Assembly (NCBI RefSeq): GCF_963676685.1
Contig: NC_092350.1
Location: 26,846,001-26,910,000, forward strand
Source: Mytilus edulis
Lineage: Eukaryota
Direction: 5' to 3'
DNA length: 64,000 nucleotides
The translations under genes and the position numbers were made by a program. Below are positions 2,391-54,162 of the stretch, piece after piece. Numbering within the stretch: the first letter of the stretch is position 1; each line of letters begins with the position of its first letter. The notes under the pieces are model-generated. The model saw nothing but the letters and a program-made list of their open reading frames with translations. It had not been told where the DNA came from and did not search any database.

Positions 2391-2516
2391 GATAATCTGC
2401 TGTAATATGAAATTCCACTTAGTGTTATGATTTTTTTAATCTTGTATCCCAGCTGGAATTAAAAATATCCGTGAAACTCTAAATAGTTATCAAAGGAACC
2501 AGGATTATAATTTAGT

Positions 2517-2560
2517 CCGCTAGACGCGCGTTTCGTCTACAAAAGACTCATCAGTGACGC
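2517..2560 (-). ncRNA. Type I hammerhead ribozyme motif (core intact, stem I weakened)
   Basis: Reverse complement GCGTCA-CTGATGA-GTCT(tttgt)AGAC-GAAA-CGCGCG-TC-TAGCGG, inside the repeat at ~2481-2725. Confidence 0.7.
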
Positions 2561-3344
2561 ACATATCAACATAGTTATAAAGTCAATCGAGTACAAAGTT
2601 GAAGAGAGTTGAGGATAAAAAAATTCAAAAAGTGGTGCCTAATACGGCTAAGGTTATCTATGCTTGGGACAAGGACATCCCCAGTTTTTGAAAAATTCAA
2701 AGTTTTGTAAACAGGAAATTTATAAAGCATAAAGCATAATCAATATCCTTCAATTGAAAAACAGCAAATTCTATCAATCATTTTGACCTAAGTCGAAAGT
2801 TAGTTTGTCTTTCAAATCCACAAAACTGACAGACATTTGGCCTAAAGTGAGGTCGATCTCCAAAGGTATAGGAAGTCACAAAACGCAATATTTTTTACTT
2901 TACAATTATATAATGGTACAAGTTGAATAGTAAACACAATACTTGATTTATACACATTGACCAGTAAATCATGAAAACGAAAAAGAATGAATGTAACCAA
3001 AAATCTATATTTTTACAATTTCAGCAAAAAAGGAAACATTTCTGACTTAAAAAAGGTTCACGAACTTTTATTTGAATGGACTGACAAACAAACAGTGTAG
3101 GCCTATCCTTATAGAAACTCAGTTCTTGCTAAGGATAAATAAAATTATCAACAATTACAAGCATATGATGTATGTTACAAGAAAATAACATATTCAAGAA
3201 TAAAAATATATATACCCTGGAAGGTAAGTGATACAATAAATAAAACAAGCACACATTGCAAATAAAAAATCCACAAAAAATCACTATGTGACTTCATGTT
3301 TGCAGTCTGGATTAATGCAAAAACTTAAACTTCATGTTCAAGTC

Positions 3345-3740
3345 TTAAGTAAAGTGTGTGTTTCTATGTTGTGATGTTATGCTATTGTTTCAGAAAAAGG
3401 GAGAAGGTTTGGATCCATTAAAACGTTTAATCCCGCTGCAAATGTTTGCACCTGTCCTAAGTCAGGAATCTGATGTACAGTATTTGTCGTTTGTTTATGT
3501 AATTTATACGTGTTTCTCGTTTCTCGTTTTTTTAAATTTTATATAGATTAGACCGTTGGTTTTCCCGTTTGCATGGTTTTACACTAGTAATTTTGGGCCC
3601 TTTATAGCTTGTTGTTCGGTGTGAGCCAAGGCTCCGTGTTGAAGGCCGTACATTGACCTTAAATGGTTTCCTTTTTATAAATTGTTATTTAGATAGAGGT
3701 TTGTCTCATTGGCACTCACACCACATCTTCCTATATCTAT
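3345..3740. repeat. Abundant dispersed repeat family (tail ...gttgtctcattggca..cataccacatcttc)
   Basis: Related copies or fragments at 1-140, 4435-4510, ~23000-23530, ~28330-28490, ~34000-34105, 42563-42663, ~43760-43950, ~44180-44350 and 63900-64000. Confidence 0.7.
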
Positions 3741-4139
3741 TAAGTGTATGCATGCTGTATGACAAAAAGAAGGTTGAAATACCACGTTATATCGTAAAAT
3801 GAAACCAACAAAATTGTTACATAATAAACTAGTGTAACAAGATTACTAAAAACAAATACGACCAATTGGCACTCAAATACATAAGCATACCTTTCAATGA
3901 ATAAAACCACTATTGCAAAACTCTTTTCGTTTCAATGTTAAATTCTGTACAGTTTAGCATACATGGATATTTTGTCTTCAGTTGGGTCATTCATGTCAGT
4001 ACTTTATATATATATATCTTATTATAACTTGTCCTAATAAAATCAACATGTCTTCAATTGAATTTAAGAGCACCCTAGTACCCGGAAGTTTGGTGGTACA
4101 AAACAAGTAAATGTGCCCTCCTTTTATAGTTTCATATAT

Positions 4140-4420
4140 TTTGACCTACCGAATTAGACTATTTACCGGATTTGTAATCACATAAGCAACACGACGGGTG
4201 CCGCATGTGGAGCAGGATCTGCTTACCCTTCCGGAGCACCTGAGATCACCCCTAGTTTTTGGTGGGGTTCGTGTTGTTTATTCTTTAGTTTTCTATGTTG
4301 TGTCATGTGTACTATTGTTTTTCTGTTTGTCTTTTTCATTTTTAGCCATGGCGTTGTCAGTTTTTTTTTTTTTAGATTTATGAGTTTGACTGTCCCTTTG
4401 GTATCTTTCGTCCCTCTTTT
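4140..4420 (+). repeat. Dispersed repeat, same family as the 3' part of the 1713-2390 element (inverted relative to it)
   Basis: Reverse-complement match to ~1713-1965 (ccggatttgtaa...caacacgacgggtgc...cttacccttccggagcacc...tttagccatggcgtt...ggtatct...cctctttt). Confidence 0.75.
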
Positions 4421-6224: not shown

Positions 6225-8801
6225 TTATTTAAGTGCTGTAACAAGTTGCCGCCAAAATACTACATCCCCTTGCTCGTCGTTTGGGAATTCTATGTACGAT
6301 TGGGATTGGACGACTTCTAAAATATGCAAAGGAAAATCACGAGCAGATATTTGCTCAAAAACCACAAGGAACAGTACATTTTCGTTATTGCGTTCGTAAA
6401 TACTCTCCATTCTCGCCATATTAAACTCAAACATACACCAGTACGACTTCAGGTAATGGTAAGTCATAATGACAACAGTTTTATGACTATTGTGAATAGC
6501 GGAAGTAATGTTAGTCGCGATGTCATTTCCTGGTAAAAAGTTTCTCTTATGTAAGCATAGGCGAATGCCATTTTCTTTTTCCAGTGTTTGAAGTAATTGT
6601 GTATGAACAAACGATCGATCGTCATCTGCATAAGACACAAAGACGTCATACATATATTCATTTTCATCTTCGTCAATTTGTGGTATCTTACTTCGAGATC
6701 TAATTTTCACCATGTAGTAACAGTATCTCAGCTTCCATCGAAATCGGTAACAAACACCCATGATAAGAACAATTATAAACAATGAAAGCGAAACAAGTAG
6801 TCCGGAAGTGAGAATCACATAGGATGTACATTCCTTTTCCAATGTTGTGAATAGTTCTGGAATATGTTTCATCTGAACACGTTTTCCAGTTGATAATTGA
6901 CAAAAGTAATGAGTTTTATTAACAATGTGTACACTTGTACTTCCCATCCAATCTATAAATTTTTGAGATTCACATGTACAAATCAGTTTGTTCCTCGACA
7001 GATTGATAGTAAGGTTTTTTCTCTTGTCAACTAAGGAATTAATCTGGATAATCGCTTGATTATTGATAAATGTTATTAAGTTATTTCTTAAATTTAAGTA
7101 TGACAGTTTTATCAAATGTGATAATTGAAAGTCAATATTTTCGATAAAATTGTCACTTAGATCTAAAAATTCCATTTTTATTTGAGATTTAAAAATCTGG
7201 TGAGGTAAATTGGATATTCTGTTTTGAGATAAATCAAGTTTTATTACATTTAACAAGTGTTGGAATGTGTTTCCATCGATATCAGATGGTAAGATAAGTC
7301 CCAGTAAATTATTACTCATTGACAACTTCTCTAATACAATGAAATCTGGACCGAAGAAGAACGTCGAAAGATAGGAGCACATATTCGAAGAAAGATCTAA
7401 GTATCTCAATTTCTTTACATTTCTCAATGGGCCAATCCAACGTGTCAAAAGGTTGTTGCTCAAATCAACACTTTCTAGTTTATTATTAGATAGCTCTACT
7501 TCCGTTATGTTATATTGGGAGCCACAAGAACGGTAATTCAATTTTGTAAGGTTGTAGGGTATGGGTATTAACGTTCTTCCAAAACCACCTTGTTCAGTTG
7601 TTCCACCTCGAAACCACACATGTTTAAATTGAGGATCCAAATATTCGTCAAGTCTAACATCAGTGTGCCAAGTACACACAAGGTCTAAGTTGCACTTTTC
7701 TGGGTTACTATCTTCCTTGTGGAATGAATTCATGCCGGATACATCTACAGTTTTTACTGATAAAGCCAACAAGTCATTCACGTATGGTCCTAAGGAAAAC
7801 ATGTTGTCTCTTACTGATAGATGGATCAATGTTGTGGGAAGAAATCTCAAAGCACCAGGTTCTATTTGTTGTAGACGGTTGCTGTCCATATGAAGCTCTA
7901 GGATGGATGTGTTTTTCAAATGCTTTATATGGTTAGTATGCAAATATGTATTCATATCAAAGACTTTATGGATTTTGTTGACTTTCAAAATTTTGATTGC
8001 GGAAAACTGAAGGTCGGCTGTTACATTTTCCAACACCTGAAATTTCAAGCATGTATTTCCTGATAAATCGAGAGAGGCAATATTTTTCATTACATGAAAA
8101 GTCTTTATCTGTAAGGATTTTATTTTGCACATAGATAAATTTAAATGTCGAACGTATGGTACATTCTGAAATGTGTTGGGTGTCAAAACTGGTACTGAAC
8201 AATGTCCTGTAAACCCAGAAAAATCCAGAAGCTTCAGGCGTTTGAGTTTTTTAAACTGTTTACTCAGTATTGCTGTTTTGTTATGCACAAAATCCATTTT
8301 CAAAGTTTCCAATCGCACTAAAGATGATATATCAGGCTGATATTCATCATAAAAGTTTTCCTTCAAATTCAAATAAACTAAGCTTTTAAAACGAGCCAAC
8401 CATTGGTGCGTAAAACTAATCTTTCTCAAATTGTTATGTTGAAGGTCGAGTTCTTTTAACTTTTCTAATCCGATGAAAGAAGATGATGAAATTGAGTTAA
8501 TGTTATTGAATGAAAGATCCAACGATGTTAGAAGTGTGTTTTCCGAAAATATTCCATCTTTAATCACCTCCAAGCTATTCATTCGTAAAGATAGTTTTAA
8601 AAGTACGTTTGGAAACCTTTGTATTCGTGTCATATTTAGTCTTGAACAATCTGCAACGTAAAGCGATGAACTCTGGTCTCTTTTACATGCGCATCTATGA
8701 TCGAACTCACACGGTTTAAATCTATTTTTTCGTTTAATTATTGAGGCAGACCTGTAAAGTATTTCGAATGTTAGAACCAATACATATAACGGTCGTATCA
8801 T
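6225..8801 (-). CDS. Toll-like receptor (single cysteine cluster type), intronless CDS, 858 aa
   Basis: One long ORF. N-terminal hydrophobic leader; LRRNT (CEFDHRCAC...VADCSRL); many LxxLxLxxN LRRs; one juxtamembrane LRRCT (NKLICTCESQKFIDWM...YFC); TM helix (VILTSGLLVSLSLFIIVLIMGVCY); TIR domain with box1 YDVFVSYA, BB loop CLHKRNFLPG, YLKSYWCMFE and box3 FW. Confidence 0.96.
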   Translation of the reverse strand: MIRPLYVLVLTFEILYRSASIIKRKNRFKPCEFDHRCACKRDQSSSLYVADCSRLNMTRIQRFPNVLLKLSLRMNSLEVIKDGIFSENTLLTSLDLSFNNINSISSSSFIGLEKLKELDLQHNNLRKISFTHQWLARFKSLVYLNLKENFYDEYQPDISSLVRLETLKMDFVHNKTAILSKQFKKLKRLKLLDFSGFTGHCSVPVLTPNTFQNVPYVRHLNLSMCKIKSLQIKTFHVMKNIASLDLSGNTCLKFQVLENVTADLQFSAIKILKVNKIHKVFDMNTYLHTNHIKHLKNTSILELHMDSNRLQQIEPGALRFLPTTLIHLSVRDNMFSLGPYVNDLLALSVKTVDVSGMNSFHKEDSNPEKCNLDLVCTWHTDVRLDEYLDPQFKHVWFRGGTTEQGGFGRTLIPIPYNLTKLNYRSCGSQYNITEVELSNNKLESVDLSNNLLTRWIGPLRNVKKLRYLDLSSNMCSYLSTFFFGPDFIVLEKLSMSNNLLGLILPSDIDGNTFQHLLNVIKLDLSQNRISNLPHQIFKSQIKMEFLDLSDNFIENIDFQLSHLIKLSYLNLRNNLITFINNQAIIQINSLVDKRKNLTINLSRNKLICTCESQKFIDWMGSTSVHIVNKTHYFCQLSTGKRVQMKHIPELFTTLEKECTSYVILTSGLLVSLSLFIIVLIMGVCYRFRWKLRYCYYMVKIRSRSKIPQIDEDENEYMYDVFVSYADDDRSFVHTQLLQTLEKENGIRLCLHKRNFLPGNDIATNITSAIHNSHKTVVIMTYHYLKSYWCMFEFNMARMESIYERNNENVLFLVVFEQISARDFPLHILEVVQSQSYIEFPNDEQGDVVFWRQLVTALK

Positions 8802-9377
8802 GACGATGAAATAAATAACGAATTAATTAGTTTTCTCAAATTTTACCCTGACGGTGGAATCATAGAGTTACTAGTTCTACAAGGTCCAAATGTAATACTC
8901 TCATTTGAAACACGTGTACATGTATATATATAAAAAAAACTTCACTCTTTGAACATATTGAATAAGTGGTACCATTACAAGTGGTGCTAAACATATAATA
9001 CAATACTAAGACTTTGACTTATTTATTTCCTTGTTTCACATCCGTAGAGATACTCGATGAACGTATAAACAGCTCTTCAAGTTGACAGCTTTTCACATTT
9101 GTCATTTTGATTTCTTCCTGTTTTTACTACATTTTAAAAACAAATATTCCGTTTATTACCAAAAACAAATAAAATAACTTTTAATTTTTGTTTAAAGTAA
9201 TTCAGATTTATTTCATTTACATTTGGCTTGAAGAGGCTTTTGCATCCTTTTGAATTTGATTGGCAAAATTAAAAAAAAACATGTCTGAGTTCGCATAATA
9301 CTTGCACACCAAATAGGATAGTGGTGGATCATGTTTTAACAACACTTGATGGAAAACTGTAGACGTACATGTATACA

Positions 9378-9893
9378 GTAAAATCACAAAAATACTTAAC
9401 TCCGAGGAAAATTCAATCTGAAAGTCCCTAATCACATGGCAAAATCAAAAAGCAAAACACATCAAACGAATGGACAACAACTGTCATATTCCTGACTTGG
9501 TACAGGCATTTTCAAATGTAGAAAATGGTAGATTGAACCTGGTTTTATAGCACTAAATCTCTCCCTTGTACGACAGTCTCATCAAGTATATGGGTGTTTT
9601 ATAAGTGCGAGAACACGATTCAGATTATTTTTTTAATGGGAGTCAAGATTTTCCAACGTCCTATATTTCGCAAGATAGCAGTCCATGGGCAGACATGTTC
9701 TTAGCATTTTCCCTTCGTAAACATTATTTCCACTAAAAAAATTAATACTGATAAATTTCGAGTAGAGTACTTAACAGACAAGCAGCACTTACTCTATTCG
9801 TTTGATGTGGTTGAGCTTTTGATTTTGCCATTTCATTAGGGACTTTCCGTTTTGAATTTTCCTCAGAGTTCAGTATTGTTGTGATTTTACTTT
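9378..9893. repeat. Two inverted copies of a dispersed repeat (9378-9585 and 9797-9893) upstream of the TLR
   Basis: aaaatcacaaaaatact.aactc.gaggaaaattcaa..ggaaagtccctaat..aatggcaaaatcaaaag occurs on opposite strands; a third copy lies at ~47300-47485. Confidence 0.75.
9839..9848. promoter_or_regulatory. Canonical NF-kB motif GGGACTTTCC ~1 kb upstream of the TLR start codon (repeat-borne)
   Basis: Exact GGGACTTTCC at 9839-9848; a one-mismatch inverted copy TGAAAGTCCC at 9419-9428. Function untested. Confidence 0.35.
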
Positions 9894-10955
9894 TAACTAA
9901 TATTATAATTTTCGTTGCTTTATAATTAAATAAAAACACACCAAAATTGATTTGATACTCAATATGCATCATTGGAAACTTATTTTAAAAACGTTTTAAT
10001 TTCAACCACACACCAAAGTAAAACCAATTGCTATTAAACACCATTATAAAAATTAATAAACGAGCCTGAATACGAAAGTGTCATGCGACGGCGCTTTTCC
10101 ACATGGGAGAGATCCGTTTGTGCCAAAAATGCGTCCTTTTGCGCCACAACTGTTTTTCTCCAATGCTAAGTTTGCGCCACATGTTTTAAAATGACATGGT
10201 ATCATTTGTGCCAAAAAAACCCATATGATTGCACCAATTAGAAGAAAATGACTTCCCTACTCCTTTATTCAGACTTAGAACCGGCAGTTTACACGCCAAA
10301 TGTTTCCTTTTCTGAAACATATTTTCTTCTTACTGCAGCTGCATGGGCACTTCCCAATTTAATGTATGTTGGTAGCTTGTAACTTCACTTTATATATTGT
10401 CCAAAAACACAAACATTGAAGGATGAAATACACAAAACAGTTCATAATAATCTCTAATAATGATAAAGCCCATACGCAATGTGGGAACAAAGCACCGTGT
10501 CAACAGTATATGTGGCTAAGACATAAACAGCAAAAGTTTTTTTTTTTTTTTTTTTTTTATCTCTATTGGTATATCTTTATTAAATATTCAGCACAGCAAT
10601 AAGTTTTTATTCTCTCTCTGCACATTAACTGTCTAATGTATTTTAAGTCATTTCTCTCCAGATGCTCATCTTCATGGTGAAATATCCGAACATATGATAC
10701 GTCAAAAATAAGGATAAATATATGTATCAATCATTAATATTTCTGGATTTACCTGTTGCAATGATAGATCATGTGTTCTTTCACTGAAAAAAACCCCCAT
10801 AAAACGCTTGTCACTATGGAAGCAACAATCAATTTAAATATAAAAGATATAATTTGGACTTTTTCGTATCCTTCGATAAAAAAAAATCGAAATTATTTAA
10901 GATATTGTATCAGAATTATAAATAGTTATCAAAGGTACCAAGATTATCATTAAAT

Positions 10956-10999
10956 ACACCAGACCCGTATTTCTTCTATATAAGACTCATCAGTGACGC
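10956..10999 (-). ncRNA. Degenerate type I hammerhead ribozyme motif
   Basis: Reverse complement GCGTCA-CTGATGA-GTCT(tatat)AGAA-GAAA-TACGGG-TC-TGGTGT. Stems II and III damaged; inside the repeat at ~10919-11070. Confidence 0.5.
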
Positions 11000-11920
11000 T
11001 CAGATCAAAATAGTTATAAAGCCAAACAAGCACAAAGTTGAAGAGCGTTAAGGACCCAAAATTCCAAAATTCAAATAAGTTGCGGCAATGTATAGAGACA
11101 TTTGAATTTATGTATGCAAGTAAGAAAAAACATCTTTCTCCACTTTATATATTATATATTTTACAAATATATATTAATACATACATTGTACTTTATACTT
11201 TTTTTGGATTTAACCTTTGGTTGCGAACGTGCAGAAAAAAATCATATTTATTCAAGTGCATGGGAAACGTTTATCTCACGGACGTATTTTTGTTTCAGGT
11301 ACTATTAATATATTAATAACGCATTTTATATCGAAGTTCCACTATGTTCCATTAGGCCTTGGACTTTAACAATATCCGGGAACATTGGCCATACCTCTTA
11401 TGGTGTTGGAAAACAATTGATGTTCGTTATGACGGTACTCGTCTAAATTGTCATGTTGATAAAGCTATAGGCACATTATCAATCTGAAACTTTATGGAAA
11501 ATTCTAAACAAGAGCAATTCTCTGTTATTACTCTACTTGGGAAACAATTCACTGTTTTATATTACTCGACAAAATAATGGATTTATTTTTATCCAAATAA
11601 ATTAAAGGATTTGTTTACAGCAATTGTAATGCTTTCTTTGATGATTCGTAATTGAAGATTAAGGTGGCGAAATTTACTTTAAAATCAATTATATAATATA
11701 TTTTTTTGTTAATTTTCTGTCAAAATTGTAATCTGCTGCGAATATTCTACTCAGACTATTGTTGTTTAAAGCAATTAAGTATCAGCTGGGATACAATATG
11801 TGTGGTTTGCATCTTTATGCTATACCAGACCGTCTATCATGTATATTTCATGCCTTCAATAACGAAATTTTCCCCTAAAAAGGTGTGAAATTTTGTATGT
11901 AATCAAAATTGTTTTCAAGA

Positions 11921-14444
11921 ACTTCAGAAAACACCAAAAAATAAAACATTTTTTTTTACGAAAAGACAATTAAAAATCGCTGGCAAAATTAAAAATTTTT
12001 GTTTTCAAATATGATATTGGTCAGGTGAGCCACTGTCGAGGCAATGAATAGAAGTACACAGATTTCTTGTTAATTATGGTGATTGTAGATTGTCAGGGAT
12101 GGATTTATGCGGTTTTAGCTTGAAACTTTAATTTCTCGCTTATTTTACCACAAAATATTTCTCGCCACGCTTGGCAAGATATCTATATATTGCACCCTCT
12201 CAAGAAGAATATTTCAATAATTCCGATAAAATTATACCTCAATTTTTTTTTTAAATCCTGGCTACGCCCCTGGAACTAATTGCATGCTTCTTTTATTATT
12301 ATATCAGTTTTGATTTTTTATCAAGGGATTAGTTTAGCCAACATCTCCGTTTTAACATATATATATTCTAATGTAATTGGTTTGGACATTTTTTCCTAAA
12401 ACAAAGGACCATATTAGATTGAAATACCCATTTTTTTCTTTTTCCATCTGCTGATAATAAAATGTTAACCCCACTGAACCACCACACCCTGAAAACATCC
12501 TTTTAGAATGGAACATTGAATGAAGATTGGATGAATTTCTTAAAAACTTCAAATAATTAAAGTCGAGTCAATACAGGGTTTTGGAGAAAACAATTTGGAA
12601 AACAGGGCTGGGCACTGAGTTTGCCAACTTTAGGGCTATACTACTATCTAGAACATTTATTGTCTTGTGATAAGGCAGGGGCGGATTTAGGCGGGGGCGT
12701 GGCGGGCGTGCGCACCCCTTAAAATTTGCAAAGCATGGGTTGCCCTCAGCTCAGTAAAGTATCTGAACAGACGACGAAAACTAATGTCGTCGCATCGTAT
12801 CTGTTTTAACATTCAAAGAAGAATATAAAACAGTAAGTTTAAGAGAATCAACGTGATTACTAATAAACTGACTTACGGTTTATTTATAAGTTCTATAAAT
12901 ATATGATTCTTCAAAGAAAGGTGCCAATAAACTCTTCATAGATACCAGGATTAAATTTTGTATTTACGCCAGACGTGCGTTTCGTCTATAAAAGACTCAT
13001 CAGTGACCCTCGAATCCACAAAAGTTAAAAAGGCCAAATAAAGTACGAAGTTGAAGAGCATTTAGGACCAAAATTCCTAAACGTTTTGCCAAAAACAGCT
13101 ACGATAATTCCTGAGGTAGAAAAGCCTTAGTATTTCAAAAATACAAAAGTTTTGTAAACAGCTAATTTATAAATATAACCATATCAATGATAACAAACGA
13201 GGTACTGCGTTTGATGACAAATATCTTAGGCTTTTAGCAGTTTAAGTGAAACAATTGTGACAGTGTAGTTGCGGATTTTATAAACAATTTCTTTGATAAT
13301 CGAAGTTCAAAAACATCCCTACCCCACTTTTACACGAAGTAGGTGAAATTGACCTACCATCGGTTGGGTTGGTTATTTCATCATGTCCACGGCCAAGAAA
13401 ACAGTCCAGGTTTGATTCTTTCCTAATGAAAGATAGAAATACTGGTTCAAGCGAAAGGTTAGTTTATTAATTTGTATCATTATTATATCTCTGTATCAAT
13501 CAATATATGTTTCTCACTTGCAACCTGTAAAGTTTGCCGAAGCATGCATAAATGGTCAAGGCCCCAACCCGTACTACCGTTTTACATAAAGTCTCACATA
13601 TAGTATCCCATGAAAATACACACATGTTCGTAAGGATCTCATTCTGATTTTAGTGATTTTTGCGCTAAACAAAATGTATATAAAAAGTTTGGCACGACTT
13701 CAGAAAACACCAAAAAATAATAATACATTTTTTTTTATGAAAAGACAATTAAAAATCGCTGGCAAAATTAGAAATTTTTGTTTTCAAATATGATATTGGT
13801 CAGGTGAGCCACTGTCGAGGCAATGAATAGAAGTACACAGATTTCTTGTTAATTATGGTGATTGTAGATTGTCAGGGGTGGATTTATGCGGTTTTAGCTT
13901 GAAACTTTAATTTCTCGCTTATTTTACCACAAAATATTTCTCGCCACGCTTGGCAAGATATCTATATTGCACCCTCTCTAGAAGAGTATTTCAATAATTT
14001 TGATAAAATTATACCTCATTTTTTTTTGTTATCCTGGCTACGCCCCTGGAACTATAACTGCTTCTTTTATTATTATATCAGTTTTGATTTTTTATCAAGG
14101 GATTAGTTTAGCCAACATCTCCGTTTTAACATAATATTCTAATGTAATTGGTTTGGACATTTTGTCCTAGAAATACCCATTTTTTTCTTTTTCCATCTGC
14201 TGATAATATAATTTTAACCATGTTTTAAAACCCCACTGAACCACCACACCCTAAAAACATCCTTTTAGGATGGAACATTGAACAAAGATTGGATGAATTT
14301 CTTAAAAACTTAAGATGATTAAAGTCGAATCAATACAGGATTTTGGAGAAAAGCATTTGGAAAACAGGGCTGGGCACTGAGTTTGCCAACTTTGGGGCTA
14401 TACTACATGTACTACTCTAAAACATTTATTGTCTTGTGATAAGG
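11921..14444. repeat. ~750-bp diverged direct duplication (11921-12675 and 13697-14444)
   Basis: Both copies run from acttcagaaaacaccaaaaaata to ...tgtcttgtgataagg, with scattered substitutions and small indels. Confidence 0.9.
12966..13009 (-). ncRNA. Type I hammerhead ribozyme motif (core intact, stem mismatches)
   Basis: Reverse complement GGGTCA-CTGATGA-GTCT(tttat)AGAC-GAAA-CGCACG-TC-TGGCGT, inside the repeat at ~12938-13192. Confidence 0.7.
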
Positions 14445-14458
14445 TAAAGCCAGGCTTA

Positions 14459-14745
14459 GGCAGCAACCATTTGATTTACGGGGGGGGGGGGGGGGGGGTG
14501 GGGGGGGGTGGGGGGGCTATGTTTTTTTTTTGGAAAAAAAAGTTTGTTTCCAGTTTTTGGAGAGAAAAAATAATTTGTTTTTGATTCTGAGAAAAAAAAA
14601 TTGTTTGTTTCACCCTCACCTGCCACTATATGTAATGCTAAAATTGAAAGAAAAAAATTGTTTTCGACTTGTCGCGAAAAAAATAGATTGTTTTTCGCCA
14701 TAGCCCCCCCCCCCCTCCCCCCTCGAAAATCAAATGGTTGCTGCC
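14459..14745. mobile_element. PIF/Harbinger (Tourist-like) MITE
   Basis: TIRs GGCAGCAACCATTTGATTT / AAATCAAATGGTTGCTGCC flanked by TTA on both sides (14456-14458, 14746-14748). A related partial copy lies at ~20214-20425 + 22068-22118. Confidence 0.8.
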
Positions 14746-15341
14746 TTATCTATTTTAATATAAAACGGGACCAGACTATTTATTCCATTGCCCCCACCCC
14801 CTCCTACTATCGGAAACAAACGAACGGCTTATCAAAATGTATAATTGGGTAAAAAAATGAAGAAAAATACACAAAAATGCAACCAAACGGAAAGGTTATT
14901 AAATAGTACGCTGTAAATATTAAAAGGGAGATAACTGAAGAATGGCATCGACAAAGATACAGGGTTTTATTTATAATCACAGAATAGCATTAATAGCAGC
15001 AGCTGGAGTCGGTAATTAACTATGTTATTTTTGTAATAACTTATTGTCTTGCTTCCTTGTCAAAGTATATCTTCGTAAAACTGTACCAAGAAGATCATTG
15101 TCATTATTAATATATTATAACCCCACTTTTCTATTTATAGAACCTTTTCGTATGCAGTAGTAAGTCTTGTTTTCTCAATATTCTGATCCATTCTGGCTAG
15201 CTCGATTTTATAAAAACAAAAGAGGATAATCATTATCTTTTATAACAATTGTATTATTTGGTTTTTTTTCTTTCTTTCTTTTGTGTTTACTTTTGTTAAT
15301 TTTCTGTGTTGCTGGCACAGGCACTGAATTGTTTCTATCCA

Positions 15342-15441
15342 NNNNNNNNNNNNNNNNNNNNNNNNNNNNNNNNNNNNNNNNNNNNNNNNNNNNNNNNNNN
15401 NNNNNNNNNNNNNNNNNNNNNNNNNNNNNNNNNNNNNNNNN
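15342..15441. other. Assembly gap (100 N) flanked by a near-identical ~670-bp duplication (14670-15341 = 15442-16112)
   Basis: The sequences on either side of the gap appear identical apart from poly-C length, as expected for unmerged overlapping contig ends. Confidence 0.9.
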
Positions 15442-16086: not shown

Positions 16087-16172
16087 CACAGGCACTGAAT
16101 TGTTTCTATCCATTGGAGACCAACTATCAACGTTGATAGTGTGTCTCCAATGGATAGAAACAAGTGCCTGTG
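16087..16172. repeat. Near-perfect 86-bp palindrome / fold-back
   Basis: cacaggcac (16087-16095) with gtgcctgtg (16164-16172); ttgtttctatccattggagac (16100-16120) with gtctccaatggatagaaacaa (16143-16163); central perfect palindrome actatcaacgttgatagt (16123-16140). Confidence 0.9.
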
Positions 16173-26100: not shown

Positions 26101-26630
26101 AACCTCGAATCTAAAACAGCTTCAATACAAAAACAGCCAGTAAATAACACTAAGTTATATCGACTTAATTGAAGCTTTAAGTTATTATGTACAAAATATG
26201 AATGTTCTTGTTTGGATAATTATATCTAAAGAAAATGTTATAAAAATGTCCATATCTATTATAAGACTACTTGAAAAACAAAGTTTAACCTTCTTGGACT
26301 TGTTTGGCTTGATAAATATTTTGATATGAGCGTCACTGATGAGTCTTATGTAGACGAAACGCGCGTCTGGCGTACTAAATTATAATCCTGGTACCTTTGA
26401 TAACTATTTCATAAATGAAACATTTTATTTCGATGATATTTTATAACATGAACCAAATTTGCGAACTTCGGGCATTATAATACCAATGAATAATCCTAGA
26501 TTTCTATTTGATATGTTAATTTTTTTATAATTGCAGTGATTGTGCAAAAAAGACACCATCAAAAGAAGCACTTAATGATGAAAACGCAAAACGCCTTTGG
26601 GAGCTTTCTGAAAAAATGGTTGGCCTTTAA
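17197..26630 (+). CDS. Retinol dehydrogenase 11/12/13-like SDR, paralog A, 7 coding exons, 329 aa
   Basis: Exons 17197-17278, 17694-17837, 19963-20154, 22591-22749, 24553-24672, 25653-25851, 26537-26630. All introns GT-AG, phases consistent, total 990 nt. Motifs: N-terminal membrane anchor, [12 protein letters not shown] (NADP-type), [37 protein letters not shown]-terminal [14 protein letters not shown]. Confidence 0.93.
19282..19355. repeat. 24-bp tandem repeat x3 (ACACATGTATTGGAACCTCTTTGC)
   Basis: Direct reading; lies in RDH-A intron 2. Confidence 0.9.
20426..22067 (-). mobile_element. Non-autonomous Helentron (HINE/DINE-1-like) with ~2.5-3 internal ~510-bp tandem units
   Basis: Minus strand: TTTTTAGCTCACCTGGCCCGAAGGGCCAAGTGAGC (subterminal IR and hairpin), (GTC)n microsatellite, tandem core (marker tctgaaattt.cagggcagatagatc at ~20681, ~21190, ~21701), 3' GGTGAGCG, hairpin AGGCTCtttaGAGCCT, then CTAG. 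Inserted into a T run with no evident TSD. Confidence 0.8.
26330..26373 (+). ncRNA. Minimal type I hammerhead ribozyme (intact), sense strand of RDH-A intron 6
   Basis: GCGTCA-CTGATGA-GTCT(tatgt)AGAC-GAAA-CGCGCG-TC-TGGCGT. Conserved core CUGAUGA/GAAA/UH, 4-bp stem II, palindromic stem III, stem I GCGTCA pairs with TGGCGT. Predicted cleavage after C26367. Confidence 0.85.
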
Positions 26631-41400: not shown

Positions 41401-44400
41401 CGCATCAACTCCGTAGAGGAGGGGGCATTAAGTAATACCCTTGTCCTTCTGTACGTCCGTACAGCCGTTCGTCCCGAAATTGTTTTTGTTCTCTAACTTT
41501 TAAATCAGCTGGTTTAAACCAAATGTTATGACAAAACACAAATCAAGTTTTCCTAGAGGGAAAAAAGGCTGAATTCTTCGTTCTCGTTCTTCAGGCTTAA
41601 GTTTACCTCAACCAAATGTTATGAAACTAAAACACAATTCTTATTATCCACAAATTTAGAAATAGAACGAAGTGTGGAAGCGTCAATTTTACCTTTCTTG
41701 AGTTATGCCCCGTAATAACGTTAAATCAAGCAGGGCAATCATAAGTATTCCATGGACACGTTCCCCATTTGTTTATATCTAATATGTTAACACACCCTGC
41801 GATAATTTCAATGACATTGCAAATACATAAAACTAATTGTTTACAATAATTAAAAAGTAACAACACGTTCTGATATGTGTTATAACAAAAGAAACGGAAT
41901 GATTACATTGGGTTTGCCGTCTGTAAGGGATAGACCGCTCTATAACAAGAAGACATAATCATGATGCAATATCGAAATTTTCAAAAATGTCTTTTTTCTT
42001 TATTGAATTATCATTTCCATGTCCATTCTTTCATGTAATTGCCACACTATGTGTAAATCTAATAAGCAGAGATATTGCAAAAAAAAGTTGTGGTCGCTTA
42101 GTATGAATATGTACATGTACGTGCTCACGTTGAAATTGTATATTTTTAGGAGCCAAAGTTATAATTGCATGTCGTGACATGACTAGAGGAAACAACGCAG
42201 TTGGTGACATTAAACGTCTCAGTGGCAGCACAAATGTTTCGATGGTACAGCTAGATCTGGCTTCATTGAAATCCGTCAGAAAATTCGCTGAGGAAATACA
42301 CAAAACAGAGAAACGATTGGACATACTAATTAATAATGCTGGTAAGATTGAGCTTAGTTTTTTTTCTGAATCAACTGTAAATCTGTTTGCCACTTTATTG
42401 TTATAACATACACGGTACATGTACCAGTTTTGCTGCATCAGATGCGCATTTTGACAATCAATGTTTCTTCAGTGATGCTCTAGGCCAAAATATTTGAATC
42501 CTAAACTTTTTATGTAACCTTCATCTGATACTTTCATAACAAAAAAAGTGGATGTTTCATAATATAAAAAAGAAGATGTGGTATGATTGCCAATGAGACA
42601 GCTCTCCACAAGAGACCAAAATGACACAGAAATTAACAACTATAGGTTACCGTACGGCCTTCAAAACTTTTTCAAGTAACAAAAACAAAATTAGTAAATT
42701 GGTAAATCTGACACTAATGTTTTACACATTCGTGCAATTCAATTCATATGAAGATAATTGTTGTGAAATAAAGGATTACTATCATGACTATTGTAGTTGA
42801 AAAATTATTCAGTTGTCAAAGTACATGTCTATTCGTAACACAGACATGACAGAATAAAAACATCGAACCACCAATGGACCCATTACTTTATTCTCAAACG
42901 ATTCTAACTGTATGCAGGAGTTATGGCTTGTCCTTACATGAAGACAGAAGATGGACTTGAAATGCAGTTCGGAGTCAATCACATTGGCCATTTTCTTTTG
43001 ACCAACCTACTGTTAGATCTGATAAAGAAAGCAGCACCAAGTCGTATTGTTAACGTGTCATCCTTAGCACATGTCTTTAGTGAGTATTGTTAATATCTCA
43101 TTCTTAGCACATTTCTTTAGTGAGTATTATTAACGTGTCATCCTTATCACATGTCTTGAGTCAGTATATTGTTAACGGGTCTTCCTTCAGTTGCTGAATC
43201 TCTTTGTTGGTATTATCAATGTGCAAGCCTTAGCAAATACCATTAGTAGATATTTAGACCATGTCATTCTTAACAACTGTATTGGTACTGTGTATTGTTA
43301 ATGTGCACATATAATTAATTTTTAAATAAGAAGGGATTAAGAATTTATGTGTCATCCTTTGGAAGTAGCTTGGTAGGGTTTTATTATTGTGTCATACTTA
43401 GCACATACCATTGTATAATTATGTTTGTTTAGTGTCATCCATTGCAAATATCTCGGTATGTATTGTTCATGTTTGATCAATAGCACATATCATTCGTATA
43501 TATTGCTAAGAAAACGATTATCATTTTTAGTGGTTTTGTTTTACGTGTCATCCTTAGAAAATATCTTAGTATGTATATTGTTCATGCTTTATCCTTAGCA
43601 CATATCATATCATTAGACCAGATATCATTAGTAGGAATTATTATTGTGTCATCCTTAACAAATCTTTAGGTATGTATTGTTAACAAATCTTTAGGTATGT
43701 ATTGTTAAGGTGAATTGGAATATTCTTGATATTCATTTTATCTGAGTTCAGTACAAGTATGTTTTCCTGTTTGAATGGTTTTTAAATTATAGTAAGTTTT
43801 GGGCCTTTTATAGCTTGCTGTTCGGTATCCGCCATGGGTCCGGCTTAAAAGCCATACTTTGGCCTATAATGGTTCACTTTTTAAAAATTGTGACTTTGAT
43901 GGAAAGTTATCTCATTAATAATACATTTGTATACCACTTCTTCTTATATATAAATGCATGTAATAACCATATAAAGATCTCATAGTTAGTTAAATATATG
44001 TTTTGTTTATTTCATTTTATGTATTTTAGCTGGTCAACTGAATTTTGATGACATTGCAAAGAGGGAAAGGTATTACAATGCGGAAGAAGCTTATACACAG
44101 AGCAAACTGTGTAACATTTTATTTACCAAAGAATTGGCATCTCGATTATCAGGTAAGAAGTTTAGCGAAACAGACTTATGATTGGACCATTGGTTTTCTG
44201 GTTTAAATTGTGTCAAATTTAATCATGTTGAGGTGTTTTATAGATTTCTATATGGTTTGGGTTTTGCTCATTGTTGCAGGCTGTACGGTAACATATATAG
44301 TTGCGTACATACAGGTTATCTGTTTGAAAGTTGTCTCTTTGACAATCAAACCTCATCATTATTTTTAATCAACCTCACACGATTTAATAAAAAAAAATGA

Positions 44401-46691: not shown

Positions 46692-47829
46692 ATGTGAAAA
46701 ATCTAAGGTGTAAATATATGTATACCTAGTAACTTATCTGTGGCGCAAGAAGAAATGGAAAACAACTGTCTATAATTATGAACATACTGCTGAAATACCT
46801 TAATGATGAAATAAAGACTTTTATTTCCATTTTTTGCTAAGTAGGTCATAATAATTGTAATTGATTTGATAATCTGTTGTGTATTTTATAAACATAAAAA
46901 AAAATTTCGACTTTACTTTTATATGTAATAAACGTCCAGTACATGTAGCACCTAAATATATGAAAAATGCATGCCCTGTTTCCTCAACAAGAATTCGATA
47001 AGTTTACTTGCATTGCTTTTACTGTATTCTGTATGACTCAGTGTACTAAGCTCTTGGATTATTATACTTTTACCTTATTCTAATTCACTAGTAGCACTTC
47101 AGTCCGTCCCTTCTGATGCTGCGTTATCAATCGATATCTTTTTCATCTTATCTTTAAACTAGGACATACTATATTGAATTCGAATATTGCGAAGAATTTA
47201 TTTGCTTTTTAGAATATATATGTCTGTACAACCTGTACAATCTAAACTAATGAGTATGTATCTCTTCTGGCTGGAATTTTAGGCGACTGTCATACATGTA
47301 ATAGGTTTAGCTTTCTATAAAACCAGGTTGAATTCACCATTTTCTACTCAAAGAAGATGTCTGTACCAAGTCCATAATATGACAGTTGTCCATTGATGTG
47401 CCTGAGCTTTTGATTTTGCCATTCGATTAGTGACTTTCCGTTTTGAATTTTCCTTCGAGTTCAGTATTTTATGATTTTACTTTTGAGTCAAACAGGTATG
47501 TTAAATATTATAAATTAAAAACAGTTGATAGCGTTATTTTCTAAACAGGTTAAATGTATACACACATTACAGAAACCTCGATTACTTTTATCATCGGCAG
47601 AGTAAGAGGTTTTGATTAGTTTTACTTGGTATGTATGACGAGACCCGATTAAATATGTTTTTGTTGCATCAGATGAAACTCTTATTTAAAAGGCATCTAC
47701 ATGTAAAAACTAACGGAATAAACGTGACTTTAAGTAGTTTTACAGGTGAATAAATATATCATGTATGTTAACACGTAAAATACAGTAACTCCAACAAACA
47801 AGGACTTTTTAGCCCAACAGAAACAGCTA

Positions 47830-48134: not shown

Positions 48135-48219
48135 TCATAAAACAGTTTCATGCACTTATACTATGATAGAATACAGACTTTGTTTCAAGTTAGTTAATAT
48201 ATAGTATGCTCAGATATAT

Positions 48220-51200
48220 CTACCGATTTGCTTTGTTACTACGTTTTTTTGGACTTTTCCAATATTGAGCTTCTTCGGCCTTTTTCCGTCTTGGTTTTAA
48301 ACAAAATCCACACACACTGGTTGCAGACTTTTCAACGCCACTGTAATACTTAAACAATGATAACTGTTCATGATTTGTTAGTATTCCTGTGCTTACTATT
48401 TCATCAGAAAATGTTTGGAGAGGAATTGAAGGAATTCTAACTTGGAATAACAATGGTCCAAGTTCCTGTCTTTTTTCTTCTCCACTTGTGTTTTTGTCTT
48501 TTAATTGACATTGAGCTGTAGCCCATTTATTTAAAGTTTTGAAGAGGGTAAGTTCATCAATTAAAATAGAATCAGCTTTCTGAAGAAAAATTGTCAATTC
48601 TTCTGCAGTTAGTGACATAAAATTCTTGTTTTTAACTACTTCTTCAAATTTAGTAGCAATTATAGACAAAGTTGTGTTGTACACATACTCTAAGTGAATT
48701 TGTTTCGAGTACCTAAAAACTTCAATGTAGTTAAATGGACGCTGAAGACAGTCTTGTATTTCACGTTTACATTGGTCTGCTAATTGTGCAACCCCATATT
48801 TTTCGGCACACTGAAAAATGTCCATTCGAGAAACCAACGACTCTTCTTTCCATTGTATGTTGTCAAGATATATAAACCTGCCAAAAATAATTAATTTGAA
48901 TATGTAAAATATAGAATTCAAAAATCTAACTTAATGACTCAATTTTGAGATTAACATAACAATGTGAGTGGTAAAACAAAAGCATTTGAATACAGTTTAA
49001 TCATATATATACTAGCAAATACCCCCAACACATGTACAATCAAACGACAAAAGTATTTGCTCTTACTAGTTAACGCTGAGTGGACAGCGAAGAGGAAGCA
49101 CAACATCAATCAGCTTTGACCGAAACAGCGATGGCATTACTTAGCTTAAACTTTTATGTCACAAATAGCGTAGCGAAGCAAGACGATAACCCCACTTTTT
49201 AGCTCACCTGGCTCGAAGGGTCAAGTGAGCTTTTCTCATCACTTTGCGTCCGTCGTTCGTCGTCGTCGTCGTCGTCGTCGTCCGGCGTCGTCTGTTAACT
49301 TTTACAAATATATTTTTCTCTGAAACTACAAGGCCAAATTTTACCAACTTAGCCACAATCATCATTGGAGTATCTTGTTTAAAAAATGTGTCCGGTAACC
49401 CGGCCAACCAACCAAGATGGCCGCCATGGCTAAAAATAAAACATAGGGGTAAAATGTAGATTTTGGTTTATAACTCTGAAACCAAAGCATTTAGAGCAAA
49501 TCTGAAAAGGGGTTAAATTGTTTATCTAGTAATATTTATCTGCTCTGAAATTTTCAGATGAATTGGACAATAGGTTGTTGGGTTGCTGCCCCACAATTAT
49601 TAAATTTAAAGAAATTTTGCTGTTTTTGGTTATCTTGAATATTAGTATAGACAGAGATAAACTGTCAGCAATAATGTTCAGCAAAGTAAGATCTACAAAT
49701 AAGTCAACATGACCTAAATGGTCAGTTGACACCCTCAAAGAGTTATTGCCCTTTATAGTCAATTTTTAACAATTTTCGTTAATTTTATAAATTTTTGTAA
49801 ATTTTTACAAAATATTTTTCTCTGTGTAACTAAAGGGCCAAGTTTATTATAGATGGAGAAAATTGTAAGTAGCAAGAATGTTCAGTAAAGTAAGATCTAC
49901 AAACACATCACCATCATCAAAACACAAAATTCATGAATCCATCTGTGTCCTTTGTTTAATACATGTATGCACATAGACCAAGGTGAGCGACACAGGCTCT
50001 GAAGAGCTTCTAGTTCGTATTACGGATCGTGAATTGAACAAAGGACATCAAGCATACTGGTATGCGTGATACCGTGAGATGACTGTGTTGTTCATTCTCT
50101 CATCAATAGCGAAACCGACGCTAACAAAATATACTACACTTGTTAAAATTTTTAAACGTTTAAATCCATAGCCTCTCCAAATCGATTTGTAAAGATTAAT
50201 TTGTGTGTTTTGGATTAAATCATGTGTGTTAAAAAAAAAAGCCATTTGGATCAACGACTATAAAATATATTTGCAATAAACAGTTCAATAAATAATAGAT
50301 CTAATAGAAATATAACAAAAAGTAGAAAGAGAATAAATATTTTAAAGTTAACTAAAAGTTTCACAAACCAATTAAGCAATTTTCAAAATTTTCCTCACCA
50401 CCTATTATTACACTAATAAACAAACAAATCGACAGACATGCACATATGGGTGGTTTAATTTTTTTTATCTTTTCATCCCGATTAACAGATTTTTTCAATA
50501 CATATATTATAACCTTTTAAAACAATTAAAATAGTCTTCAAATAGATCCTTTGTTTACAACTTTCGCCTTTGATCATACATCATGCTAACTGTACAAGTT
50601 GCAAGACGGTTAACAATTCAATATTTATAGATTCATGAGAAAATTAATGTTCCAGAATGAATTAATTTGAGGTAGTGGTAGGATTTCAATTGAGAAACCC
50701 CATCCACCAACAACCAAAAGACAAGGATTGACAAATTGTTCCTTTTTTGAAATTTATTGAAACTGTAATATGACTGGAATATTTGGAGGGAAAATTATAC
50801 AGAAATGATTATCCATATGTATAAGACTATAACATCCTCTCAAACATCTAAGACATATTAACATACCCCTAGTTTTTGGTGGGGTTCGTGTTGCTTAGTC
50901 TTTAGTTTTCTATGTTGTGTCTTGTGTAACATTATTTGTCTGTTTGTGTTTTTCTTTTTTAGTCATGGCGTTGTCAGTTTATTTTTGTTCTATGAGTTTG
51001 ACTGTCTCTTTTGTATCTTTCGTCCCTACTCGAGAAGATGCCCGCAAAATCGCGGTTCAGTTTTGAAACAAAGAGTTTTTAAATTTCTCGGGCTCACGTC
51101 AATACCAAATTCGAGTCTTGACCCCGATTGGTCCATTAAACTTAGAAAATGTTAGTGCGAGTGGGGCATCCGTGTACTATGGACACATTCTTGTTTAGAT

Positions 51201-51477
51201 AAATATAAAAAAAAAACATTGGATATTTTTTTAACAGATAGATAAATAAATACCTCAAGAGTAGCTTAAAAATGCCCGGTGAGCAATTCGTTATTTCAAC
51301 GCGCAGTTCATTATTTTCAAATGGTCCTTTCAGCAAACTTTCTAGGAAATTACTTGCGGTTGCAATAATAACTATATGTCCATGAAGTTCCAAATAATCA
51401 TTCTCCGGAAACACAAATATTACATCAGAAAATTTATTTTGTAAATATAACTTTCCTATCCGTTCTTTTACATCCAT
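48220..51477 (-). CDS. BTB/POZ-BACK protein (BTBD1/2/3/6-like), no C-terminal substrate domain, 2 exons, 293 aa
   Basis: Exon 1 51254-51477 (MDVKERIGKLYLQNKFSDVIFVF...HGHIVIIATASNFLESLLKGPF...FKLLLR), phase-2 GT-AG intron, exon 2 48220-48877 (FIYLDNI...AEKYGV...DELTLFKTLNKWA...LGPLLFQVRIP). Confidence 0.88.
49197..50014 (+). mobile_element. HINE, same family as 20426-22067, about one internal unit
   Basis: TTTTTAGCTCACCTGGCTCGAAGGGTCAAGTGAGC...(GTC)n...AAGGTGAGCGACACAGGCTCTGAAGAGCTTCTAGTT; lies in the intron of the - strand BTB gene. Confidence 0.8.
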
Positions 51478-51632
51478 ATTGGATAAATACTGTTTTTAAA
51501 ATTAATGTAGTTAGTGATTGAAAATTGTGATCGATAGTTACTAAGAGATAACAAAAACATATAAGCTTTATCATATCAACTTGAAACATTTGTCAACTAT
51601 TTTGGACATTATAATGTTAATTTAAAAAGAAA

Positions 51633-54162
51633 ATGGATAGATTCGGTATATGTTCTGATAGGCCCATAGATACTATGAGCACTCGGCTTTCTAGAATTTG
51701 GGCAACTGACGAATTTGCAGATATACAGTTTACATTTGGACGAGGAGTCGACGGAAGGAGCTTACCTGGACATAAAATACTATTGTCCATTAGGAGCAAT
51801 GTATTCAAAGCTATGTTTTATGGACCGATGGCAGAAAAAGTTGATGCAGTTGATATAACAGACATAGAATATGATTGTTTTAGGACAATGCTGCGGTAAG
51901 AACATGTTTACATTTTATCATCTATCGAAGCATCGATGTGCCTCTCTGATCAGACCTGTTTAGTTACGGGTTAAAATTCCTAATAACCAAGATTCACTAT
52001 TCTTATTGATATAATAGTACTAACGTTACTGTTTATATAATATAAACTCATTACAGATACCAGGACTAAATTTAGTATATACGCCAGACGCGCGTTTCGT
52101 CTACAAAAGACTCATCAGTGACGCTCGAATCCAAAAAAGTTAAAAATGCCAAATAAAGTACGAAGTTGAAGAGCATTGAGAACCAAAATTCCTAAAAGTT
52201 TTGCCAAATACAGCTAAGTTAATGATATGGTTGTTTGCACAAGAATAAGTAAAAACAAACCACACAATTCCAAGAAGGACAGAATCCACATGACTTTAAG
52301 GGAAAAGGCGAAAAGACAAACATCAGCCCTAAAAACAACGCAGACTATTAATTTTAGATATTGACCACACCAAATTCGTTAAAACAGGTTTGAACTCAGA
52401 CGCCACTGATCATATTGAAGAATCGGCTGTTATATTTTCATATACTAGTTATTCACTGATTATTAAGAACATTATGTATTTAAACTATAATACAAAAAAG
52501 TGGACAATGATATCAAGGGGACTTTCAAATCTCAAAAGTCTAGAGAACCTGACAATACCATGGCAAAACATGAAAGACGACGAAAAGACAAACAATTTCG
52601 TAAACTCTTCAAAACCTGGAATGGAGTGTTATCTCAGGTGATCCGGCGACTGTCTTGTTTTTCATGGTAATAACAAATGTGGTTAAGTGTGTCATTCTTT
52701 GATATCACAATTAAGGAAAAGAGGACAGTCGTGTATGTGGTCACGACAGTTTGAACACATCCGTGGTAATTTGTGATATATATTTCTTCTACTCTGAAAC
52801 TGCATAGCCAAATTCAACCAAACTTGGCAACAATCATCATTAAGGTGTCTAGTTAAAAAAAGATGTGCTCGGTGACCCCGAATGCAAATCAACTTGACCA
52901 CCACTGCTAAACTAAAAGATACCGCATAGTAAGAACCCTTAGATCTACAGACTATCCATATAAACCTATTGATAATTTGAATTTCTTCTGTTAGAAATAG
53001 AATCAAATTGATTGAGAATGCTTTTCTATATATGTTTTTTAGGGATGTGTATACAGATGATATTATTATAACTGAAGAAAACTCTATTGATCTTCTAAAA
53101 GCTGCACACAAATACGAATTTGAGGGTCTCCTAAGCAAATGTCAAAACTATCTATATCGAGAGACAAATATTGACAACTCTTGTTCAATATATAGTTGGG
53201 GAAGACATTTGGGGCTATCCAGCTTGACAGAAAAAGCTCTCGATTTCATAGTAGACAGCGCTGACGATGTTTTAAAAACAGAAGGTTTTCTCAAACTGAG
53301 TAACGATGATTTGCACACGCTTCTTTCAAGAGAGGACATCTGTGCTTTTGAGGAGGAAATAATAACTGCTGCAATAAAATGGGCAAGGAATAAATGCAAG
53401 CAGGACATGATAGAAACAAATGGACAAACAATGAGACAAGCGTTGGGTCCAGTGATTTACACTTTACGCATACCGTTATTATCTCTTAAAAGATATTCCG
53501 ATATTGTTGTCAAGTCCATGATATTGAGTGAGGAAGAGGAATTAAGTTTATACAAGTATTTCACTATGTCTAAAAAGCGTCTTGCAGATCTTTGTGGATT
53601 TGATAAAAGTTCGAGGAACCGGCTTTCGCTTTTCGTTAAAGCAGAGGACATTCACAAAAAGAGGAAAGTGGAAAACATAGATGACACCATAAAGGCAACA
53701 CGGTTTCTACAGACGTCTAAGTCGACGATCTTTGGTGATACATACACGAACAAGTATCAAAAACAATACAATTATCAAAGAACCAACTACTCACAAAAGA
53801 TTTCATTCTTTTCACCGGAGTCATTTTTCATAAATGCAATTACAATTTCTTTCCCATTTTTGAGTGAAAAGAATAAACCTGTACCAGAAGAGATTCAAAT
53901 ATCCGGTTCTGTTCCAACGTGTAAAATTAGGATACCTGTTAACGAAACAAAACTGTTCGATATGAATAGATATGTTAAAGAGAATGAAGAAATTGAAATA
54001 AATTTCACGCCCTTCATCAAATTTGACAAGCAATTTAAGGAAAACGAATCAAGTGGTTGGAGAGAAGTTAAAATAGGATCAAACAAATCAGTGTTCGTTC
54101 AGGTTGAAGGGAGTTATTCTTTTGTTAGTGCAATAGATATATCTGCCTCGAAGATGAAATAA
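51633..54162 (+). CDS. BTB/POZ-BACK protein (BTBD1/2/3/6-like) with divergent C-terminal domain, 2 exons, 460 aa
   Basis: Exon 1 51633-51895 (ADIQFTF...LPGHKILLSIRSNVFKAMFYGPMAE...ITDIEYDCFRTMLR), phase-2 GT-AG intron, exon 2 53043-54162 (VYTDDI...LLKAAHKYEFEGL...EEEIITAAIKWARNKC...ALGPVIYTLRIP). Confidence 0.9.
52081..52124 (-). ncRNA. Minimal type I hammerhead ribozyme (intact), antisense within the intron of the + strand BTB gene
   Basis: Reverse complement GCGTCA-CTGATGA-GTCT(tttgt)AGAC-GAAA-CGCGCG-TC-TGGCGT, inside a dispersed repeat at ~52053-52222. Confidence 0.82.

Follow-up and report, generated by a model that had tools for sequence, protein, structure and literature searches.

The closest described relative of the repeat analysed here is the non-long-terminal-repeat (non-LTR) retrozyme of Mytilus galloprovincialis, which is made of 350-390-bp repeats with two similar families of hammerhead, about 5,000 motifs and no open reading frame (ORF), and which is transcribed and yields abundant circular RNA, the transcripts of its arrays being self-cleaved and ligated into circles (PMC7229834). 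According to a 2020 review, metazoan retrozymes show no conserved motif that reveals their autonomous helper (PMC7761336). Vertebrate retrozymes have been proposed to derive from the pseudo-long terminal repeats (pLTRs) of Penelope elements (bioRxiv 10.64898/2026.07.22.740005). For PAc, a Poseidon element of the anole, Frangieh et al. (2024, PMC11167929) found that the reverse transcriptase (RT) initiates within the RNA, at a stem-loop rich in AC that lies downstream of the hammerhead, and that genomic 3' ends lie on the start sites; cleavage is not needed, uncleaved RNA being the main substrate in vitro. Finally, the elements of the Naiad clade, dominant in bivalves, have a GIY-YIG domain at the N terminus, a C-terminal RT, a DKA motif, no hammerhead, partial tandem structures and 5' truncations (Craig et al. 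2021, PMC8557442). We have analysed a stretch of 64,000 nt of the Mytilus edulis genome (contig NC_092350.1, positions 26,846,001 to 26,910,000; hereafter the window), in which a first-pass annotation had noticed a dispersed repeat family carrying five type I hammerheads. The hammerheads, the repeat family and the circles are already published; the new part is a hairpin shared with Naiads and a common offset of the insertion ends. Because of these two features we propose, with a probability of roughly three in four and on sequence grounds, that a Naiad RT copies and inserts the RNA of the mussel retrozyme. A literature search confined largely to open journals and main texts brought up no paper that connects the retrozymes of molluscs with Naiads.

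By the size of its units and by the type and number of families of its hammerheads, the repeat is most likely the published mussel non-LTR retrozyme. Elsewhere in the genome its units stand head to tail in tandem; they measure 351-368 bp in subfamilies A and B, apart from a few deleted or longer ones, and 350 bp in subfamily C, with one run of nine. Units A, B and C align along their whole length. Across the subfamilies 4 of the 12 hammerhead pairs are changed on both sides, in all three helices, and 95% of the cells are paired. The suggested kinship to retrozymes is thus upheld at the level of the family, in which a canonical type I hammerhead is found in tandem units within 150-450 bp. As in M. 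galloprovincialis, the hammerhead is of type I, in units that here measure 350-368 bp and with hammerhead types A/B and C; in contrast to the tandem units of that species, the copies in the window are solo fragments, and the available text of that account describes no fixed 3' end, hairpin or specific helper (PMC7229834). Hammerheads of a fourth subfamily, D, which differ in the tail and in the palindrome of helix III, were also observed (L063, L087:1599-1642 and L095:7270-7313).

A search of the 1,368-Mb (1.37-Gb) assembly with a 34-nt motif pattern rendered 12,505 exact matches, to which subfamily C adds 3,555, while the hammerhead core pattern rendered 21,862. When up to three mismatches were allowed, the motif was found 40,660 times, or once per 33.7 kb. 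The figures of about 5,000 motifs for M. galloprovincialis (PMC7229834) are thus well exceeded. The reversed patterns gave no match genome-wide in the exact, core or three-mismatch searches, and the matches are therefore not due to chance. The load is indeed very high, as had been suggested, with tens of thousands of motifs and with arrays elsewhere in the genome, but the density of one copy per 13 kb extrapolated from the window overshoots about two-fold. The window itself holds 4 matches with up to three mismatches against 1.9 expected (P=0.13) and is about five-fold enriched in exact matches (3 against 0.58, P=0.02).

The ends of the copies were studied in 76 insertions, sampled from the window and from the initial 13 Mb of a single contig, 50 of them solo and 26 with at least two hammerheads. 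These ends were set by alignment; an earlier pass based on anchors had left 38 of 116 hammerheads without a tail anchor, partly members of subfamily C under the A/B pattern. The 3' end lies 0-16 nt before GTCGATG, a word of the hairpin in the next segment of the unit, in 64 of the 76 insertions, and 10-14 nt before it in 53, while the 5' lengths are scattered from 33 to more than 400 nt. Such a pattern, in which the 3' end is fixed and the 5' end ragged, is characteristic of target-primed reverse transcription. Target-site duplications are not in excess: repeats of at least 7 nt flank 7 of 64 insertions against 6.6% of shuffled pairs, and the longest word shared by the flanks has a mean of 4.86 nt (4.81 in shuffled pairs). 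The five copies in the window extend 74-221 nt on the 5' side of the hammerhead cut site and stop 42-48 nt on its 3' side.

Each retrozyme unit carries, about 50 nt past the cut site, a hairpin of 60 nt, the pattern of which occurs at 7,224 places in the genome. This hairpin also precedes the ORF in two hammerhead-free families of Naiads, the second of which was reached from a broken RT piece at 1711-2381 of the window; their proteins are 56% identical. Among the 30 loci of Naiad-1, the hairpin stands directly before the start codon in 16, and the 3' ends lie 7-12 nt before GTCGATG in the 24 that have this anchor. The 3' ends of Naiad-2 lie 9-14 nt before the hairpin in 28 of 30 loci. The prediction that the 3'-end motif of Naiad-2, with 12,726 exact matches genome-wide, would, in full-length copies, be followed by GTCGATG within 16 nt was tested and rendered 104 matches, against none in the control; nearly all of them read ACCACTGGGTCGATG, as in the retrozyme, and the whole hairpin follows in 19 of 20 loci that were fetched. 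Compared with units A, B and C, the Naiad-2 hairpin shows 83-85% identity, and no other stretch is shared with them at E<0.1. In an alignment of ten hairpins 98% of the cells pair and 7 of the 17 pairs are changed on both sides, whereas slid controls pair in 36-49%. Compared with those of Naiad-2 and the retrozymes, the Naiad-1 hairpin (L115:1409-1489) has an extra side stem of 21 nt, and its outer stem carries three compensatory changes.

Both putative helper families match the features described for the Naiad clade (PMC8557442). The Naiad-1 protein has its GIY-YIG domain at residues 179-269 of 1053, with DKA and YIDD in the sequence, and an upstream pLTR of this family repeats its 3' end, giving a partial-tandem structure. 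The Naiad-2 protein shows a weak GIY-YIG match at 135-172 (E 0.037), RVT_1 at 645-854 (E 1.2e-4) and DKA at 557; an open frame of 1000 codons is kept in three of four tandem loci, the repeat period being about 3,370 bp, and no motif resembling the hammerhead core was found on the sense strand of the four Naiad-2 loci searched. Three Naiad-2 3' ends spaced by 3,370 bp (G000:C1:408005-414764) were observed to form a head-to-tail array of the autonomous element, which suggests multimeric or circular templates for Naiads too. The non-autonomous partners described for Chlamys elements are similar to them at the 3' end (PMC8557442), whereas the piece shared here is the 60-nt hairpin from the 5' end of the Naiad; the words "hairpin" and "stem-loop" are absent from the main text of that paper.

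A mechanism that would account for these observations starts from transcripts of the arrays, which, following the literature, would self-cleave and be ligated into circles. The Naiad protein would bind the hairpin, nick AT-rich DNA and start the complementary DNA (cDNA) just 5' of the hairpin, by analogy with PAc of the anole, and copying would read back across the hammerhead cut site. A linear monomer cut by the hammerhead would give a cDNA of only 42-48 nt. The start would lie 42-48 nt from the cut, yet the copies run 74-221 nt beyond it, which argues for a continuous template, whether a circle or a multimer left uncleaved. Copying that stops early would leave solo copies and several rounds would produce arrays, which would be the only forms able to make new circles. 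PAc differs in that it is autonomous, with a C-terminal endonuclease and a hammerhead in its own repeat, and the available text of that work assays neither a retrozyme nor a Naiad (PMC11167929). Somewhat less firmly than the assignment of the helper itself, we are inclined to regard the 60-nt hairpin as a portable start signal of the Naiad RT, and the retrozyme as a mosaic parasite that may have combined this captured signal with a hammerhead absent from Naiads, the circle serving as an endless template copied from one fixed point.

The family is expressed. One A unit drew 5,632 of 8,710,588 and 6,458 of 8,252,136 read records in two stranded raw-read runs from one study, which were chosen by species label and may differ in species from the genome; expression is meant here at the level of the family. 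The strand of the hammerhead exceeds the antisense by about 5-6:1 in the part of the unit that is exclusive to long copies, the strand convention having been verified on spliced reads. Reads leave the unit at +40 to +43 (loose ends 1445-1448), the same place as the insertion ends. Other reads, which return from 1544 to 1190, pass over a point inside the unit and carry no information on circularity.

It could also be the case, although we hold it improbable, that the hairpin is shared with Naiads through capture but serves another role, for instance as a promoter, in stability or as an aid to circularisation, with RNA processing setting the offset of the ends and another RT making the copies. 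Its position at the 5' end of the Naiad, directly before the start codon, would suit an internal promoter, and its binding by the Naiad protein is so far a prediction. At the 3' end, on the other hand, the hairpin lies outside the inserted DNA and yet fixes that end within a few nucleotides in five families; moreover, its compensatory changes point to an RNA structure, and a related enzyme has been shown to initiate internally, beside a bound region of the RNA (PMC11167929).

Similarly low is the probability that we give to the repeat being a derivative of a hammerhead-bearing terminal repeat of Penelope or Neptune, moved by that element, which is the model proposed for the retrozymes of frogs. 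Of the 57 retrozyme families of Xenopus, 24 have matches to repeats, and nearly all of these repeats are Penelope-like (bioRxiv 10.64898/2026.07.22.740005); the mussel genome has intact Penelope-type ORFs of 755-959 amino acids with a C-terminal endonuclease, several of them accompanied by hammerhead-like motifs. These hammerheads, however, differ in sequence from those of the retrozyme and have 6-nt palindromes, and the elements themselves have no sequence in common with the units. A comparison of 46 GIY-YIG loci with units A, B and C led us to set aside an origin from Penelope pLTRs, since the matches to the units, including the family hammerheads that adjoin L043, L064, L085, L091 and L095, look like separate insertions. 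In the 209,692 bp of these loci the hairpin was found only in one Naiad locus and in one decayed retrozyme copy. The Penelope-type loci thus lack the hairpin, and the fixed 3' end of the retrozyme agrees with the ends of Naiads; that the Penelope families were sampled only in part limits this case. In the canonical Penelope-type families of L094, L086, L091 and L061, the hammerhead-like motifs, with their 6-nt palindromes, were seen to lie downstream of the ORF. The first-pass mention of Penelope terminal repeats does not fit the window either: no RT or endonuclease ORF is linked to any copy, and an ORF combining RT and GIY-YIG is absent from the whole window, the sole RT-like piece being the broken Naiad at 1711-2381, a separate insertion that begins about 100 nt 3' of the first copy. 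A chimera of that copy with the Naiad fragment was considered and rejected, as about 100 unrelated bases lie between them. Like the vertebrate retrozymes, the mussel elements would be non-autonomous passengers of Penelope-like elements, and both have solo monomers scattered along chromosomes. The vertebrate partners carry the hammerhead in the pLTR, whereas the likely helper in the mussel has none and shares the hairpin only (bioRxiv 10.64898/2026.07.22.740005). The available text of that preprint contains no occurrence of mussel, Mytilus or mollus-, and thus no coverage of molluscs.

Several points weigh against Naiads as the helper. Binding of the hairpin, initiation and circularity are inferred from sequence. 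The sample of insertions was selected by intact hammerheads and includes near-duplicate loci; 12 of the 76 insertions end elsewhere, and the inverted neighbours in the whole sample, considered as Penelope-style 5' inversions (five near 5' ends and three near 3' ends), are not clearly 5'-biased. The alignment of the hairpin comprises only five related groups, with the apical helix of Naiad-1 misaligned, and because the groups are related the shuffle control overstates the significance. Many of the Penelope loci used as controls reach only 1.5 kb to either side of the endonuclease, and the scoring covered only 150 of 858 candidates. The likeness to the published mussel clones is drawn from their description (unit size and hammerhead type). 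The predicted minimum-energy fold is the monomer hammerhead in none of the five copies of the window. Furthermore, in the two runs there is no pile-up of read ends at the cut site, the depth being continuous across it; such an unbroken depth fits circles and uncleaved multimers alike.

Turning to the hammerheads themselves, the five 44-nt motifs of the first-pass annotation were confirmed at 2517-2560 (-), 10956-10999 (-), 12966-13009 (-), 26330-26373 (+) and 52081-52124 (-), all with CTGATGA, GAAA and TC. The motif folds as type I, with 6 bp in helix I, 4 bp in helix II and 2 bp in helix III closed by a GCGC loop. All 12 pairs are kept only in the copies at 26330 and 52081, the only fully paired ones, since stem I has two mismatches in 2517 and one in 12966 and since 10956, which is likely inactive, has a G-A at the first, core-proximal pair of stem II; the 4-bp stem II ascribed to every copy does not hold there. 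The palindrome of stem III is perfect, ACGCGCGT, in three copies (2517, 26330 and 52081), and it is kept at 6 of 8 positions in 12966 and at 4 of 8 in 10956. With regard to the Rfam model Hammerhead_1 (RF00163), three of the five copies match, 26330 with 33.0 bits (E 2.4e-4), 52081 with 32.5 and 12966 with 30.4, significant by E-value (2e-4 to 2e-3) and slightly under the gathering threshold of 34 bits; 2517 is listed instead under Hammerhead_3 (E 0.026), and 10956 has no Rfam match at E<=1. The count of five was incomplete, as two further decayed hammerheads, of sister subfamilies, were found. The sixth (42421-42498, -) is of subfamily C, 85.9% identical to unit C over 78 nt, with a stem II pair and the core broken; the seventh (60135-60185, -) is of C/D type, 82.7% identical to unit C over 52 nt, with changes in the core and in the cleavage triplet.

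These motifs had been called minimal. Canonical metazoan type I hammerheads are defined by 6 bp in helix I, 4 bp in helix II and 1-2 bp in helix III, the loop of which is palindromic, while in the minimal motif helix III is not needed, an example family having 7-8 bp in helix II and 4-5 bp in helix I (Cervera and de la Pena 2014, PMC4209133). With 6/4/2 bp the motif of the window is canonical by that definition. It shares with the minimal hammerheads of Penelope elements the type I topology, the palindromic helix III region and the possibility of dimers, and differs from them in these helix lengths and in having no linked ORF (PMC4209133). In line with the suggested dimers, the 26330 motif is predicted to co-fold as a dimer of two hammerheads with an intermolecular helix III of 8 bp. 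Cleavage as dimers only is doubtful, however, as a single cloned mussel repeat was cleaved at about 0.1 per min (PMC7229834). The suggestion of small circular RNAs does not extend to the five copies in the window, at none of which was a second hammerhead found, each being shorter than one unit. With one hammerhead per copy none of them can release a monomer or a circle alone; neither do they contain the 60-nt hairpin, and they are therefore predicted to be dead ends.

Each of the five copies covers part of a single unit, over 116-274 bp and with 86-96% identity to unit A or unit B, and all five, solo and 5'-truncated, are ordinary remnants of an element of a kind already known. Three solo, truncated copies belong to subfamily A. 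The one at 2480..2726 (-), truncated at its 5' end, is 87.5% identical to unit A over 248 nt, with the predicted cut of its hammerhead after 2523 and its 3' end 43 nt beyond; that at 10919..11069 (-), 87.4% identical over 151 nt, has a decayed hammerhead; and that at 26294..26409 (+), 95.7% identical over 116 nt, has an intact hammerhead with a predicted cut after 26367. The solo truncated copies of subfamily B lie at 12926..13193 (-), with 86.1% identity to unit B over 274 nt and the 3' end 46 nt beyond the cut, and at 52042..52229 (-), with 93.2% over 190 nt and an intact hammerhead with a predicted cut after 52087. The 26330 copy lies on the sense strand of a short-chain dehydrogenase-like gene, within its last intron (25853-26537) and 128 nt short of the acceptor, the intron limits being read from the sequence and the strand of the gene being taken from spliced reads at upstream introns. 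The 52081 copy is antisense within an intron of a BTB-BACK gene on the + strand (Pfam matches on the flanking exons; splice sites read from the sequence). That some of these copies are co-opted regulators, for instance 26330 cutting the dehydrogenase pre-mRNA in its last intron, is very improbable, for although this copy keeps all its pairs and lies in sense within a gene that is transcribed and spliced, it is a young member (95.7% to unit A) of a family of tens of thousands with no partner hammerhead nearby, the second intact copy runs antisense to the gene that hosts it, and the reads on 26330 stem from other copies, their loose ends continuing into unit sequence while the depth of the neighbouring intron is below 0.4.

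Remnants of the Naiads are present in the window as well. The fragment at 1711..2381 (-), detected by tblastn, is a broken, 5'-truncated Naiad-2 copy, 82.7% identical over 694 nt to the full unit. A Naiad-2 3' end lies at 4130..4420 (+; 96.6% over 291 nt) and a Naiad-2 3' region at 50865..51027 (+; 90.2% over 163 nt), while a Naiad-1 3' end occupies 9369..9581 (-; about 89% over 215 nt), with further pieces at 9793-9899 and 47272-47484.

Among the other features of the window, three tandem units of 511 bp (20516-22070) lie in the intron 20152-22589 of the dehydrogenase-like gene, with a related copy at 49196-49927; at family level reads on this repeat are deep and mostly from the - strand (about 45-320 against 1-27), and it presumably resembles a Helitron-associated repeat of molluscs. 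A degenerate 40-bp tandem repeat (43028-43700), the first unit of which reads as dehydrogenase coding sequence, is apparently the end of an exon amplified into an intron of a second short-chain dehydrogenase/reductase gene. An identical duplication, 771 bp apart and flanking a gap of 100 N (15342-15441), at 14705-15775, is likely an assembly artefact. The near-perfect hairpin at 16098-16165, which matches mir-3121 weakly (36 bits, the threshold being 108), is probably a small inverted-repeat element; this match and one to ZEB2_AS1_3 were set aside, both being far below the Rfam thresholds. The window further contains genes for a Toll-like receptor with LRR and TIR domains (6225-8822, -) and for an nSTAND3-ankyrin protein (28753-32676, -), a divergent pair of BTB-BACK genes (48220-51495, -, and 51621-54162, +) and a ligand-gated ion channel encoded by a single long ORF (56039-57292, +).

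The number of hammerhead-like motifs in a mussel-type genome rises with these results from about 5,000 to more than 40,000. A motif of the kind that had been missing from metazoan retrozymes exists here; its distance from the ends of the insertions is fixed, and it points to a clade devoid of hammerheads, which differs from the model of pLTR derivatives in frogs. If the hairpin is indeed a portable start signal of the Naiad RT, the helper that had been missing for an animal retrozyme would be named and the RNA signal of Naiads defined; this would also suggest that RNA circles in general could be integrated once they are given the hairpin.

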